This document shows, one piece after another, positions 42,402 through 46,182 of a stretch of 50,807 nucleotides of DNA. The position numbers and the translations under genes are program-made. Within the stretch, counting starts at the first letter, position 1; each line of letters begins with the position of its first letter. The notes under the pieces are model-generated. The model ran no database searches. It saw nothing but the letters and a program-made list of their open reading frames with translations, and was not told the DNA's origin. Source of the stretch: a virus (taxonomy: Duplodnaviria > Caudoviricetes); IMG/VR virus record IMGVR_UViG_3300028592_000019, positions 1-50,807 of that record. One strand, 5' to 3'.

Positions 42402-42790
42402 GGCTGAAGCTCGATGCCAACATGGGCGGCGATCTGGGCTCTCGATTCCCGAGGCAGCTCGTACCCTTTGCCCCATAAGGTGTTGATATCGGCACCGATC
42501 CCGCGAAGGGCCACGCGGAGCTTGCACACCTGGACTTGGATTATTTTGATCTCGGGCTGATCGAGGCGATCACCGTAGATCGCATGGAACATCTGATCAT
42601 GGGTTTTGCCTTTGCAGTCCCACAAGACCCAGAGAACGCGAGCCGTTGAAGGCATGACCTGAAATGCCTTACGAACCGCATCGATAAACGCCGGCTCCGG
42701 GTCATAGCGAAGCTGACGGCGCAGTTCAAAGTTCTCAGCGCTCAGGCGCTCGTTCTCTTTACGCAGGGCGACGAATGCTGCCTCGTTCAT
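42398..42790 (-). CDS. OmpR/CtrA-like winged-helix protein without receiver domain
   Basis: IYG...PEIKIIQVQVCKLR...INTLWGKGY. Confidence 0.8.
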   Translation of the reverse strand: MNEAAFVALRKENERLSAENFELRRQLRYDPEPAFIDAVRKAFQVMPSTARVLWVLWDCKGKTHDQMFHAIYGDRLDQPEIKIIQVQVCKLRVALRGIGADINTLWGKGYELPRESRAQIAAHVGIELQP

Positions 42791-43413
42791 GGCGCTTTCC
42801 TTCCGACCAAATGGGTGACATCGACGCCGTGATCGAAGTCGAGAACTGGCTGCGACCGGAGCGGCAAATAAGCCTTCTCGGCGGGCCCGCGGCGTTTCCG
42901 CCAGTCCCAGACGAACCATGAATGGTTCTCGGTGGGGCCATTTTCCTTTTGCGGAACATTGGTCCACCGGATGCGCCGGGTAAGGCGGTACTCGACGGCA
43001 AAGGCCGGATGCTGATCGAAGAGGTGACGGCGGCCATCGGCGCTGTCGAAGCCGACCTTCAAGAGCATTGCCACCTTGCCGCCGTGGAACTCTGTGAGGC
43101 GAAGGGCATGCTCAATGAACCGCACAGCAAGGCGTGACTGAACGCCGTAGGGCGGGTTCGAAACGATGTCGTAGCCATTGGCGTCCTCGCACTCGAAGAA
43201 GTCGAGACGCTGGACGAAATCACTGTCGGGCTCGATGTCAGATGCCCACACCGTCATGGTCGATGGCAGTGACGACACAATCGCGCCGTCGCCGCCGGCG
43301 GGGTCCCAAACCTTGTCGAAGCTCTCCGCCGCGATCAGGGCTTCGATCACCCATGCCGGGGTGAAATACTTCTCGTTCTGGATACGGTCGTAGGTGGAAG
43401 CGCCGACGGTCAT
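42787..43413 (-). CDS. Orphan amino (probably N6-adenine) DNA methyltransferase
   Basis: YFTP, WDPAGGDG, VSNPPY. Confidence 0.82.
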   Translation of the reverse strand: MTVGASTYDRIQNEKYFTPAWVIEALIAAESFDKVWDPAGGDGAIVSSLPSTMTVWASDIEPDSDFVQRLDFFECEDANGYDIVSNPPYGVQSRLAVRFIEHALRLTEFHGGKVAMLLKVGFDSADGRRHLFDQHPAFAVEYRLTRRIRWTNVPQKENGPTENHSWFVWDWRKRRGPAEKAYLPLRSQPVLDFDHGVDVTHLVGRKAP

Positions 43414-44450
43414 GGCCGAATTGCCTCCTCAACCATGTCCGCCGCCGCCGGAAATGCCTTACGGGCGGCAAGCAACTGCTTTTCCGTGCCGATCCATGCA
43501 TACTGACGCTCGCCCGTCAGGCGGGTCCCTGACATGTGGAGAAACTGTCCTCGACCAAGATGCTCGCGCAGATAGAACCGGCCTGATGGTGCCTTGCGTG
43601 GCCTATGCAGCACGTCTGAAACATCGTTCTCGACCAGAGGGCGCAGCCGCTCGCTTGGCTTGCTCAGTGGCGGCAGTTCTGGGGCTGGCTGGGTCTGTGG
43701 CTCGTCGGATGGCGCTCCGGCCTCTGGTGGCTCCTCTGCCGCTTCCTTGGCCCATTTCGATGCCGTGCCGAGCGAGCAGCCAGCTTCCGCCGCGATCTGC
43801 CGAAGGGTCCAGTCCGGATGGGCTGCGACGACAGCGAGAACCTTGTCGCGCATGTTCTCTGGCGGGGTACGTGGCGCTCGTGGCAGCTTCAGGCTGAGAT
43901 GGCTCGCCATGACCTGAATGTGCTGCACGCCGAAGCCGAGGTGTTCGGCTATCTGGTGCGAGGTCCAGTCTGGGTGCTCTATATGGCAGGCGCGGACCTG
44001 TTCGCGCTTGGTCATGCGAGGGGATGGGGCGGCGGGATGGATCGCACTTTCGTCCTGCATCCCGCCGGAGGCATCGGCAGACGCCTCCTGTTCCGAGGTC
44101 TTTGCTTCCACTGGCCGACGCATTTCCTCATCGTCGGGGAGCGGCTTAGGAGCCTCGGGAATGAGCGTGACGGGATTTCCCGCCACGGAATTTTCGACGG
44201 GCGCAGAAGCCAGGGAGGAGGAGACCTCCGCGCCCGTCGTGTCGCCCGCCGCTTGGGAAGCGGGCGTATCGGCAGCCGGCGCATGAGGCTTGGAGGGAGC
44301 CTCCGGCTGCGATGGGGTGATGCATGGGCGCAGGGCCGCGATGATCGCGCACTGGCTCGTGCGGTATGTCTTGGCCTGCTCGGCGATGAACACGCCGAAG
44401 TCGAGCGTCACTGTGGTGGCGTCGTGGGCTGCGAGAATTGGGCTGATCAT
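43410..44450 (-). CDS. Protein with two tandem HPDWT HTH repeats
   Basis: HPDWTSHQIAEHLG and HPDWTLRQIAAEAG. Confidence 0.65.
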   Translation of the reverse strand: MISPILAAHDATTVTLDFGVFIAEQAKTYRTSQCAIIAALRPCITPSQPEAPSKPHAPAADTPASQAAGDTTGAEVSSSLASAPVENSVAGNPVTLIPEAPKPLPDDEEMRRPVEAKTSEQEASADASGGMQDESAIHPAAPSPRMTKREQVRACHIEHPDWTSHQIAEHLGFGVQHIQVMASHLSLKLPRAPRTPPENMRDKVLAVVAAHPDWTLRQIAAEAGCSLGTASKWAKEAAEEPPEAGAPSDEPQTQPAPELPPLSKPSERLRPLVENDVSDVLHRPRKAPSGRFYLREHLGRGQFLHMSGTRLTGERQYAWIGTEKQLLAARKAFPAAADMVEEAIRP

Positions 44451-45664
44451 GCCGCGGCCCTCTCGGTATCCAGATAGGCTGCGATCACTTCCGCCGCGGC
44501 TTCCGGTACGATTGCATTGCCGCCAACGCGCCAGAGATCCACTCGGCCGGGAAGCCCATCAACCAGAAGGCGAATACTGGGTTCGGCGCGCCGCGCTTTG
44601 CCGTCGTGGCAGAGGAGCCATTCGGCGTCTGACCAGTAGGTTCCGTTGCGGCGATCGGACCGGACAGTCGCTCGTCCATCTGACCCGGCAGCAACAAGAA
44701 CTTGCGACCGCCGCTCATTTGGTAGCCCCGACCCTGCGCATCCACCACTGACGTCGTCGCCCACATCGCTTGTGGCGGCTGAGCCATCTGGCGCGGCAAC
44801 TGGTCGACCCTGTTCCGGTCTCCCGACTCCGTCGCCATGCCAGCGCTGTCCTTCCAGTCTCGTGCCGAAGGCGTCACCCAGGGTGACGCCTGGGCTGGTG
44901 CAGTTTGCACAGATGGTTGACATGCCCCCGGGGAAGAATGGGCCAACGCGTCCGCTTCCGCCGCAGGCTGGGCACTCGCCATTACGAACCCCAGATTGGG
45001 GCTGTTCCTGTTGGCCTCGCTGGGCGCTGGCCCTCTCTCGCCCTCGCTCGCCTTCACCGCAGGCCATGTGGATTGATGCATTTGCGCCGGCAGGGGTTGG
45101 CCACCCGCCCCGAAACTCTGGTTGGGCGAGCCCTTTTCCCCGTCGCTGGCTCGCGGCGTGCTCCACTGCGATCCAGTAGAGTCGGTTCCGTTGGTGTGGC
45201 GCGTCGACACTGCAAGCCGGGAAATCAACCGCCCGGCTGGCGTATCCTTCGCTCTCCAGATCAAAGCGGACTCCGTCGAACCAACCGTACCCAGCCGCTC
45301 CCGCAACCTGCTCTCCCATGACGACAGCGGGCCGTCGGGCACGGATGAGGCGATGAAAGTCCGGCCACAAATGCCTTGGATCATCGGTTCCGAGCCCTTT
45401 GCCGGCCGCCGAGAACGGCTGGCACGGACAGGAGCCGGTCCAGAGTGGTCGGTCGTCAGGCCATCCAGCAAGTCGAGCTGCGACGGACCAGAGGCCCCCG
45501 CCGGCGAAGAAATGGCATTGGGTGTAGCCGTCGAGGTCATCGGGCATCACTTCCTTGATGGAGCGGGTGTCGACATCGCCCGGCGCCAGAACACCGTCAT
45601 CGATGAGCGCGCGGAGGATATGCGCAGCGGCATGGTCGAATTCGTTGTAGTAGGCGCGGGCCAT
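44447..45664 (-). CDS. C5 cytosine methyltransferase, alpha polypeptide
   Basis: FFAGGG (I), PCQPFS (IV), EQV (VI), RNRLY (VIII), GNAIVP (X); no motif IX. Confidence 0.9.
   Translation of the reverse strand: MARAYYNEFDHAAAHILRALIDDGVLAPGDVDTRSIKEVMPDDLDGYTQCHFFAGGGLWSVAARLAGWPDDRPLWTGSCPCQPFSAAGKGLGTDDPRHLWPDFHRLIRARRPAVVMGEQVAGAAGYGWFDGVRFDLESEGYASRAVDFPACSVDAPHQRNRLYWIAVEHAASQRRGKGLAQPEFRGGWPTPAGANASIHMACGEGERGRERASAQRGQQEQPQSGVRNGECPACGGSGRVGPFFPGGMSTICANCTSPGVTLGDAFGTRLEGQRWHGDGVGRPEQGRPVAAPDGSAATSDVGDDVSGGCAGSGLPNERRSQVLVAAGSDGRATVRSDRRNGTYWSDAEWLLCHDGKARRAEPSIRLLVDGLPGRVDLWRVGGNAIVPEAAAEVIAAYLDTERAAA
44485..45540 (-). CDS. C5 methyltransferase beta polypeptide, nested alternative frame
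   Basis: 351-aa same-strand ORF; NPVFAFWLMGFPAEW is motif IX-like; four W-x-T-P-like repeats. Confidence 0.72.
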   Translation of the reverse strand: MTSTATPNAISSPAGASGPSQLDLLDGLTTDHSGPAPVRASRSRRPAKGSEPMIQGICGRTFIASSVPDGPLSSWESRLRERLGTVGSTESALIWRAKDTPAGRLISRLAVSTRHTNGTDSTGSQWSTPRASDGEKGSPNQSFGAGGQPLPAQMHQSTWPAVKASEGERGPAPSEANRNSPNLGFVMASAQPAAEADALAHSSPGACQPSVQTAPAQASPWVTPSARDWKDSAGMATESGDRNRVDQLPRQMAQPPQAMWATTSVVDAQGRGYQMSGGRKFLLLPGQMDERLSGPIAATEPTGQTPNGSSATTAKRGAPNPVFAFWLMGFPAEWISGALAAMQSYRKPRRK

Positions 45665-45666
45665 GG

Positions 45667-46182
45667 CTAGGCGCTCCTGCGCTTGGTTTGATGGAATGCG
45701 AGTTCGGGGAGTTGCTGGGCCGCCATGTGCGTCCACACCGCGAGGGCCATGCAGCGCTCGGTCACAAGGTCGTCCATGCTCACCCACAGGCGCCGTCGGC
45801 TTTCCTGTTTCACGGCCCGGACGGCTTCGGCGGCGTTGAGGCTGGCTTGCCCGGTATAGGTGCCGATCGCCTCGCCAAAACTCACGCGCTTGGCAACGCC
45901 AGGGAGGATGCCCTTGACCACGGTCCGGGCGACCACCTGCAAATCGCGCAACCGTTCAGCATCGCTGGCGATCAAGGCAACTGCTGAGATGGCTATGATC
46001 TCCGGCTTGTGGGCATCGATGGCCTGATAGATTTTGGTCTGCGCGTTGCGCCAGACCTCATCCTCGATATTCGACGGACTGCCGAACGTCAGGACGCCCG
46101 ACAGCGGCTTTTCAGCACCAGGCCTACCGAAGGCCCATCCAGCGCCCAAAGGGGCAAGGCTGAGTGCAAGAACGGGTTTCAT
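45667..46182 (-). CDS. RuvC-like protein, apparently catalytically degenerate
   Basis: VLALSLA..GAGWA, IAISA, CMALAVW where D/E/D would be expected. Confidence 0.55.
   Translation of the reverse strand: MKPVLALSLAPLGAGWAFGRPGAEKPLSGVLTFGSPSNIEDEVWRNAQTKIYQAIDAHKPEIIAISAVALIASDAERLRDLQVVARTVVKGILPGVAKRVSFGEAIGTYTGQASLNAAEAVRAVKQESRRRLWVSMDDLVTERCMALAVWTHMAAQQLPELAFHQTKRRSA

Follow-up and report, generated by a model that had tools for sequence, protein, structure and literature searches.

A long reading frame nested out of phase within a phage C5 cytosine methyltransferase gene is under selection and probably encodes the second chain of the enzyme

We analysed a 50,807-base virus record (IMGVR_UViG_3300028592_000019, positions 1 to 50,807; hereafter the window; GC content 65%), in which a gene for a C5 cytosine DNA methyltransferase, here called frame A, encloses a second long open reading frame (ORF) on the same strand, frame B. 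Judging from the way the two sequences diverge among relatives, both frames are under purifying selection in interleaved segments, with A constrained at methyltransferase motifs I-VIII and at its C-terminus, and B constrained through the middle of the gene and at a C-terminal WLMGFP motif. According to the homologues retrieved, the nested layout is shared by hundreds of phages, whose hosts belong to distant bacterial groups and several phyla. We consider it probable that the two polypeptides read from this one stretch of DNA together form an orphan phage C5 cytosine DNA methyltransferase comparable in kind to M.EcoHK31I. The copy in the window is an ordinary member of a large family, and the interest of the locus therefore lies in a family-wide phenomenon.

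The arrangement given in a preliminary description of the locus, two nested frames on one strand with about 1 kb open in both, agrees with the ORF list, in which both are minus-strand frames. Frame A (44447..45664, minus strand) encodes the alpha-like chain of 405 amino acids plus stop and matches PF00145 and phrog_363. Frame B (44485..45540, minus strand), which is displaced by +1 relative to A, encodes the beta-like chain of 351 amino acids plus stop, matches phrog_1008 and lies entirely within A, covering 87% of it and leaving 1,056 nt open in both frames. The longest ORF in frame A begins at a GTG (44447..45787, 446 amino acids), whereas its conserved start is the ATG at 45664, which is shared by relatives and from which the protein opens MARAYYNEFD.

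The selection acting on each frame was examined by comparing the window with 28 relatives, using only those sites at which A-guided and B-guided alignments agree. Over A residues 41-120, A's third codon position was the fastest (A3 0.27-0.50, A1 0.16-0.22), the pattern of A coding. At A residues 181-220 and 261-300 it was instead B's third position that evolved fastest and B's second that evolved slowest, with rates at A1=B3, A2=B1 and A3=B2 of 0.50, 0.19 and 0.16 over residues 181-200 and of 0.36, 0.15 and 0.08 over residues 261-280, indicating B coding. In the tail of A the A-type pattern returned, A's third position being fastest at residues 341-360 (0.21, 0.22 and 0.34 in the same order) and again at residues 381-400 (0.22, 0.20 and 0.35), and these two segments flank residues 361-380, where A1=B3 was fastest and A3=B2 slowest (0.29, 0.21 and 0.20), which is B-type or dual. 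The substitution phase repeats on 70 loci that were picked by A, with few sites aligning in the repeat region.

In addition, we counted the synonymous-difference rate across 96 loci at codons with an identical A residue. From a baseline of 0.46-0.55 over A residues 1-100, the rate fell to 0.36 at residues 101-120 and 141-165, which lie under the conserved N-terminal module of B, and to 0.161 (127/788) at residues 361-376, under B's NPxxxxWLMGFPxxW. B, in turn, had a synonymous rate of 0.45-0.55 in stretches that are constrained in B only, compared to 0.13-0.24 beneath A's motifs. Since the synonymous rate of A drops under B's modules, the gene carries the classical signature of a second coding constraint, and substitution phase and synonymous suppression both bear out the suggestion that two nested frames are under selection.

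The nesting is conserved well beyond the window. Our first sample comprised 41 fetched loci and the window, and here the B-like frame lay in every case inside the A-like frame with a +1 displacement, over GC contents of 0.51-0.70; the exceptions were one locus with a broken A (L031), one in which B runs on (L009) and several that were short or cut by the end of the contig. Because most of these loci had come from a search with B as the query, a second sample was drawn by A motifs only (SCPCQPF and QCHFFAG), yielding 80 loci, 78 with a recognizable PCQ and 71 in which the A ORF is complete and no shorter than 250 amino acids. In all 71 of these complete loci the +1 frame stays open over 250 codons or more, compared to 0/71 for the +2 frame, where the longest run is 157, and a WLMGxP-type motif is found in the +1 frame of 65 of them. 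The preliminary description had allowed that the inner frame might prove not to be conserved; in the 71 complete loci picked by A it is kept without exception. The +1 ORF is also kept at GC contents of 0.51-0.56 (L040, L094, L119 and K1ind2) and in a Paenibacillus phage.

In each of the 29 non-redundant loci used for synonymous-codon shuffling, A and B are both open; the shuffles held the protein and codon usage of one frame fixed. For the window, the probability that B is open given the A protein was 0.021, and the probability that A is open given the B protein was 0.001. The latter was at most 0.015 in 29/29 loci, while the former ranged from 0.000, reached in a locus of GC 0.51 (L040), to 0.59. 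GC content by codon position, plotted for the window alone, gave no decisive signal.

Among named phages, the nested pair is present with both ORFs annotated in the E. coli phages K1ind2 (gp32/gp33) and K1H (ORF29/ORF28) and in Paenibacillus phage DevRi (DevRi_56/57), and it is also found in phages Klebsiella RCIP0114, Burkholderia vB_E264 and Rhodobacter RcKeef, with Salmonella phages likewise among the groups represented. A nested +1 ORF is present in N15 (gene 58; L125 1487-2134), epsilon15 (L124 919-1965) and Mycobacterium phage Royals2015 (L126 1451-2014), whose records annotate the outer methyltransferase gene only. The three nested ORFs that were scanned against phrog_1008 matched at 6e-72 (DevRi), 1.1e-64 (K1ind2) and 3.7e-54 (Royals2015). 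The nested ORF of K1H (L123 1283-1975) is labelled 'putative Mte8-like protein', a name that the one phage paper found to contain it only repeats. The window proteins are members of phrog_363 (A) and of phrog_1008, phrog_31772 and phrog_27243 (B), for which the existing names are database labels only. What is already known is thus the nested ORF as a PHROG family, annotated in a few phage records under borrowed names. A full-text literature search, with most subscription journals and supplementary files outside its reach, returned no paper on the nested pair, its conservation or its function, and the main text of a study of out-of-frame remodelled gene families in E. coli (PMC8788219) does not contain the words methyltransferase, methylase or prophage.

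Frame B appears, from its sequence context, to have a start of its own. Its ATG (45538..45540, minus strand) lies 23 nt upstream of A's motif I and is preceded by a purine-rich AAGGAAG at 45550-45556. In 23 of the 24 loci in which the pattern located motif I, a +1 ATG precedes this motif by 23 or 35 nt, and although the A residue at this position varies (D, N or H), its codon still ends in AT, so that the ATG is kept. Among 85 non-redundant loci, 67 have a +1 ATG close to motif I and an open frame behind it, compared to 24.2 +/- 3.9 expected from synonymous shuffles (0/200,000 simulations reached 67), and in 75 the +1 frame is stop-free over A's N-terminal motifs, compared to 45.6 +/- 4.1 expected.

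Chain A carries a C5 methyltransferase core with motifs I, IV, VI and VIII, as had been proposed. The motifs FAGGG (I), SCPCQPFS/PCQ (IV), GEQV (VI) and HQRNR (VIII) align to residues 74-198 of M.HhaI with an E-value of 1e-15, and these motifs pair with canonical methyltransferases at an hhalign probability of 98.5%. The chain is matched along its full length by phrog_363 (2.3e-68), while the PF00145 match, at 53.9 bits against a cut-off of 22, spans residues 117-212 of the 446-amino-acid form and profile positions 66-165 only. Relatives of A account for 7,989 of 8,000 scored candidates at E <= 1e-3, and those close relatives that are named (NCBI) are called 'DNA cytosine methyltransferase'. 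Within motif IV, C81 is invariant and P80 and Q82 are conserved among 88 sequences. An AlphaFold2 model of A, built from an 88-row alignment, found its best Foldseek matches in M.HhaI (2uyc_A, E 2.3e-7) and M.HaeIII (3.3e-7), followed by DNMT2 and DNMT1, with a probability of 1.00.

The model divides A into three parts. Residues 1-177 (45134..45664, minus strand) form the catalytic core with motifs I, IV (PCQ at 45419-45427), VI and VIII, which is predicted with a local distance difference test score (pLDDT) mostly above 90 and shows A-type substitution. Residues 178-344 (44633..45133, minus strand) are a predicted disordered linker of 167 residues, without secondary structure and with a pLDDT below 50 (33-50), which corresponds to the A-frame reading of B's repeat modules and has the substitution pattern of frame B. 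This is the variable region that had been described as low in information and off-frame in appearance, a description that both the model and the substitution pattern uphold. Residues 345-405 (44450..44632, minus strand) fold again (pLDDT 70-96) into strands at 349-351 and 357-359 and helices at 372-382 and 387-404. This tail contains GNAIVP (44504-44521), in which G382 is invariant and N383, A384 and I385 are nearly invariant, and which is followed by a confident helix. The reading of GNAIVP as motif X holds in so far as the motif is visible by eye and conserved, but hhalign of A residues 340-405 against canonical motif X gave a probability of only 0.25%, which is not significant, and we refer to it as motif X-like. 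Between motif VIII and the X-like motif, the model and the B-type evolution of this region indicate that A has neither a folded target-recognition domain nor motif IX.

Chain B belongs to known phage protein families, matching phrog_1008 (labelled 'DNA methyltransferase', 1.2e-17), phrog_31772 (3.2e-12) and phrog_27243 (8.4e-14), and its relatives, 1,661 of 8,000 scored candidates at E <= 1e-3, are nearly all unnamed. Residues 1 to ~55 are unconstrained. They are followed by a conserved N-terminal module at residues 57-111 (45208..45372, minus strand; a hairpin, a helix and two strands, with a pLDDT of 65-85 in B alone), in which L79 and G87 are invariant and S88, T89, E90 and W95 nearly invariant. 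This module lies over A's motifs VI-VIII, and the segment is true dual coding. Residues 123-291 (44668..45174, minus strand) comprise four W-x-T-P-type repeat modules, which their sequence and B-type substitution mark as candidate DNA-recognition modules; across 92 loci the number of such modules varies from 0 to 6 per protein, and module types are patchily shared. Close to the C-terminus, residues 320-334 (44539..44583, minus strand) read NPVFAFWLMGFPAEW and are followed by 17 further residues. This segment is conserved, with P321, W326 and L327 invariant and N320, M328, G329 and P331 nearly invariant, it lies in the predicted interface with A, and by pattern it is motif IX-like.

In some relatives, an endonuclease VII/HNH domain of ~190 residues, matching phrog_3322 (4.7e-30) and phrog_1035 (3.5e-24), is inserted in frame with B (P0021 and others, L004 and L028). 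The insertion lies between A's motifs VI and VIII, and A stays open throughout (L004 2335-3936, 533 amino acids; L028 1570-3375, 601 amino acids). The insertion of a globular domain in phase with B argues that B is read as protein.

We also modelled the two chains separately and together. AlphaFold2 of B alone (84-row alignment) gave a mean pLDDT of 57, with confident structure only at residues 53-111 and in the C-terminal helices at 321-344. In the complex with A, the pLDDT of B was 74-75, and the interface scored an ipSAE (interaction prediction score from aligned errors) of 0.94, 0.94 and 0.93, compared to 0.37 for the best control, with ~290 confident contacts, at least 96% of them common to the runs. 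The predicted interface joins A residues 11-25, 121-169 and 339-403 to B residues 57-159 and 315-348, and these are the segments marked as constrained by the selection analysis. The AlphaFold complex check of alpha and beta that had been suggested as a way to probe the pair thus came out in favour of association. A and B are predicted to bind, a pass that supports binding and stops short of showing it.

In the explanation that we favour, chain A, translated from the ATG at 45664, would provide the S-adenosylmethionine-binding and catalytic core (motifs I, IV, VI and VIII) and a C-terminal helix with GNAIVP. The two would be joined by a disordered tether of ~167 residues that is merely the A-frame reading of B's coding sequence, and which must stay stop-free because the ribosome has to reach A's tail. 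Chain B would have its own start at the +1 ATG shortly before motif I. The initial ~55 residues of B would be an unconstrained by-product of A's motifs, after which would come a conserved docking module, the variable W-x-T-P modules and a conserved C-terminal LNPxxxxWLMGxPxxW helix. By docking on A, B would supply the small DNA-recognition domain that single-chain enzymes hold between motifs VIII and X.

We prefer to see B as an obligatory part of the catalyst because A is without any folded recognition domain. It could be argued instead that B is translated and binds A but stands outside the catalyst, as a regulator or in a separate phage function, such as one connected with the nuclease domain inserted in some relatives, with A methylating alone. 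Such a role would suit a protein that has no significant similarity to any methyltransferase domain, that is mostly predicted to be disordered by itself and that carries an endonuclease VII/HNH domain in some of its relatives. We nevertheless judge it improbable: DNA recognition by A alone is hard to see when no folded domain occupies the place where the target-recognition domain belongs, the conserved ends of B sit on A's core in the predicted complex, and B accompanies A in every complete locus examined. The possibility that frame B is a non-functional shadow ORF, held open by the GC-rich composition of an A-only gene, has to be considered at 65% GC, where many chance ORFs of more than 100 amino acids overlap the region on both strands, and in the most GC-rich locus (L024) the probability of B being open given the A protein reaches 0.59. 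However, the +1 ORF persists at GC contents of 0.51-0.56, the +2 frame is never open for 250 codons (0/71), the substitution pattern in the middle of the gene is that of B coding, synonymous change in A is suppressed over B's motif and a globular nuclease domain has been inserted in frame with B, and we find a mere shadow ORF scarcely credible.

A single chain made by programmed ribosomal frameshifting, in which the ribosome would read the N-terminal part of A, shift +1 into B and then -1 back to A, has the attraction of putting motifs I-VIII, the variable region, IX and X back in their canonical sequence, and the canonical enzymes examined indeed show IX and then X. B's WLMGFP (44539-44583) precedes A's GNAIVP (44504-44521) by ~10 codons, and in single-chain enzymes motifs IX and X are about as far apart. 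Even so, from the layout of the frames, the predicted interface and the selection pattern, we regard frameshifting as very unlikely. A is open through the whole linker (P <= 0.015, 29/29 loci), which shifting would not require, and B is open back to the conserved ATG near motif I. Moreover, B's docking module and A's motifs VI-VIII share nucleotides and are both in the predicted interface, so that one chain cannot hold both, and selection switches from A to B, to A, to B and to A again, for which four shifts would be needed. A programmed-frameshift gene would be expected to have a zero frame that ends shortly past the shift site and a shifted frame with no open stretch upstream of it, whereas at this locus A is open to its end and B back to an ATG near motif I.

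Several points weigh against the view that A and B are the two chains of one enzyme. The preliminary description had taken B's C-terminus for motif IX, and what stands of this is a likeness of pattern only, LNPxxxxWLMGxPxxW resembling motif IX of canonical sequences such as ARLMGLNDDY in L129. Homology to motif IX has no statistical support and is unproven: B profiles aligned to four canonical methyltransferases from rhizobial genomes gave an hhalign probability of 0.1%, and searches of the PDB by sequence, with B and with a 39-sequence C-terminal profile, found no match at E <= 10. Pfam and NCBIfam scans of B found no family, and a Pfam scan of all 84 B alignment members at E <= 10 returned two chance matches only. 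At the level of structure, VIA-align of the B model against 48,161 chains reached a best Z of 3.0, with nothing meaningful, an ESM Atlas search with B, covering named clusters only, gave no usable match, and B alone is predicted to be mostly without structure.

The start of B and the statistics have weaknesses of the same bearing. Eighteen of the 85 loci have no ATG in the narrow region tested, and in N15 the listed +1 ORF begins later, at a TTG. The Shine-Dalgarno signal ahead of B's ATG has no more than moderate strength, with a mean duplex energy of -5.1 (compared to -2.7 for in-gene controls), and an equally strong one is found in a median fraction of 0.12 of in-gene control windows. The mark used for the complex score is reached by 58/80 solved complexes and 2/110 mismatched pairs, counts that apply no more than roughly to custom alignments such as ours, and the score itself could partly reflect the model's memory of how the halves of single-chain methyltransferases pack. 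The loci are related, so locus counts are not counts of independent events. Finally, that both chains are translated, that both are needed for methylation and that B sets the target specificity is what we infer from these computations.

The closest precedent, M.EcoHK31I of E. coli (target YGGCCR), had been stated correctly in the preliminary description, as two papers confirm (PMC2836561, PMC3404938). There, beta is encoded entirely inside alpha in another frame and carries motif IX, alpha holds motifs I-VIII, X and the target-recognition domain, the chains must associate for activity, and ~40 N-terminal residues of beta are dispensable. Similarly, the phage B is nested in A, A has motifs I, IV, VI, VIII and an X-like motif, the two are predicted to bind, and the first ~55 residues of B, like the dispensable N-terminus of beta, are unconstrained. 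In contrast to M.EcoHK31I as described there, where alpha has the target-recognition domain and beta only motif IX, the phage A is disordered in this region and B carries variable repeat modules. The idea of an EcoHK31I-type pair therefore stands for the nesting and the predicted binding, and has to be modified in that B extends over almost the whole of A and contains the variable repeat region, while A is without a folded target-recognition domain. On its published description, M.EcoHK31I may belong to the same family. M.AquI (PMC3404938) consists of two polypeptides split within the variable region, with part of that region on the smaller chain, and the phage enzyme would likewise be divided into two chains at the variable region. 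Unlike M.AquI, where a linear split places motifs IX and X on the smaller chain and I-VIII on the larger, the phage motif X-like segment remains on the chain of the catalytic core, and one gene lies out of frame inside the other.

The order of motifs in A had also been suggested to be permuted, with segments resembling motifs II and III ahead of motif I. This suggestion is in line with a 34-column gap between motifs I and IV, at the place that motifs II and III occupy in canonical enzymes, and with a conserved N-terminal segment that is predicted as a confident beta-alpha-beta unit, with Y6 and N7 invariant and E8 and D10 nearly invariant. However, the pairing of this segment (YNExD, GDVD) with motif II had a probability of only 0.3%, which is not significant, and no meaningful alignment to canonical enzymes was obtained by hhalign with residues 1-48 of A alone. 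We regard a permuted order as plausible but unproven. Because the Paenibacillus and Mycobacterium phage versions of A begin right at motif I, and because Royals2015 has by eye a motif II-like segment after motif I, in an order that looks canonical, the nested partner gene is not tied to permutation.

It is a tentative and rather doubtful proposition that the W-x-T-P modules of B are interchangeable DNA-recognition cassettes. By gaining, losing or swapping them in steps divisible by three bases, which keeps both frames open, phages would retune or multiply the targets of one catalytic chain. The multispecific C5 methyltransferases of Bacillus phages are single chains with tandem target-recognition domains, present in variable number between motifs VIII and IX, and are thought to protect against host restriction. 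In contrast to these enzymes, to which we liken the present one by description only, the modules here are on a separate, out-of-frame chain. Should the cassette proposition be true, the family would represent a modular, possibly multispecific anti-restriction methyltransferase with its specificity subunit overprinted on the catalytic gene.

In bacteria and phages, long overlaps that truly code in both frames are rare and disputed, and here ~1 kb of overlap, repeated in hundreds of genomes, is accompanied by clear interleaved selection in both frames. To our knowledge, an overlap of ~1 kb found over several bacterial phyla would rank among the longest and most widespread same-strand overlaps in bacterial viruses. 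The family includes model phages that can be grown on laboratory strains, namely N15 and epsilon15, K1 phages and mycobacteriophages, making it directly testable. Standard annotation pipelines give frame A alone, as 'DNA cytosine methyltransferase'. Recoding of A, for example by codon optimization, would silently destroy B, and an inactive enzyme could result; likewise, both chains may have to be considered when methylomes are assigned to genes of this family. What has been reported as a disordered 'variable region' in such enzymes may be a by-product of the hidden gene. If B sets specificity, the pair would be a natural split methyltransferase with a detachable recognition subunit, a design that engineering has aimed for (PMC2836561).

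Some relatives depart from the usual form of the pair. The nuclease domain inserted into B resembles a homing-type nuclease that settled inside the overlapped genes. In a few contigs B is without its usual stop and runs on for ~700 amino acids (L009 2495-4708, a 737-amino-acid run; P0123; P0124), and in P0124 the extension carries the nuclease-related domains PF12705 and PF10926. The extended form suggests read-through into a downstream gene, and may reflect either a true fusion or an artefact of assembly or indels. None of 3 longer B forms has a precomputed methyltransferase domain, so that no single-chain relative fused in frame came to light, although this is weak evidence. In L031 (2251-2724), a metagenome-assembled genome, A is interrupted (157 amino acids) and B intact (359 amino acids), reflecting either a decaying copy or a sequencing error.

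In the window, the pair belongs to a minus-strand phage replication and packaging module that comprises an HNH endonuclease, a RuvC-like resolvase, a 171-amino-acid ORF, the methyltransferase, a 346-amino-acid protein, a 208-amino-acid ORF, a primase/helicase and the large terminase. The 171-amino-acid upstream gene (45667..46182, minus strand) has no family match, and its stop lies 3 nt before A's ATG. The ATG of the 346-amino-acid downstream gene (43410..44450, minus strand), which has weak DNA-binding PHROG matches only, overlaps A's stop codon (ATGA). Numerous plus-strand ORFs of 100-220 amino acids run antisense to the methyltransferase region (43394-45670, plus strand), as is expected by chance at 65% GC. 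The 208-amino-acid ORF (42787-43413, minus strand) matches phrog_799 'DNA methyltransferase' (9.8e-43) over profile positions 201-377 of 458 only, and together with the 346-amino-acid ORF just upstream it may represent a split or truncated second methyltransferase.

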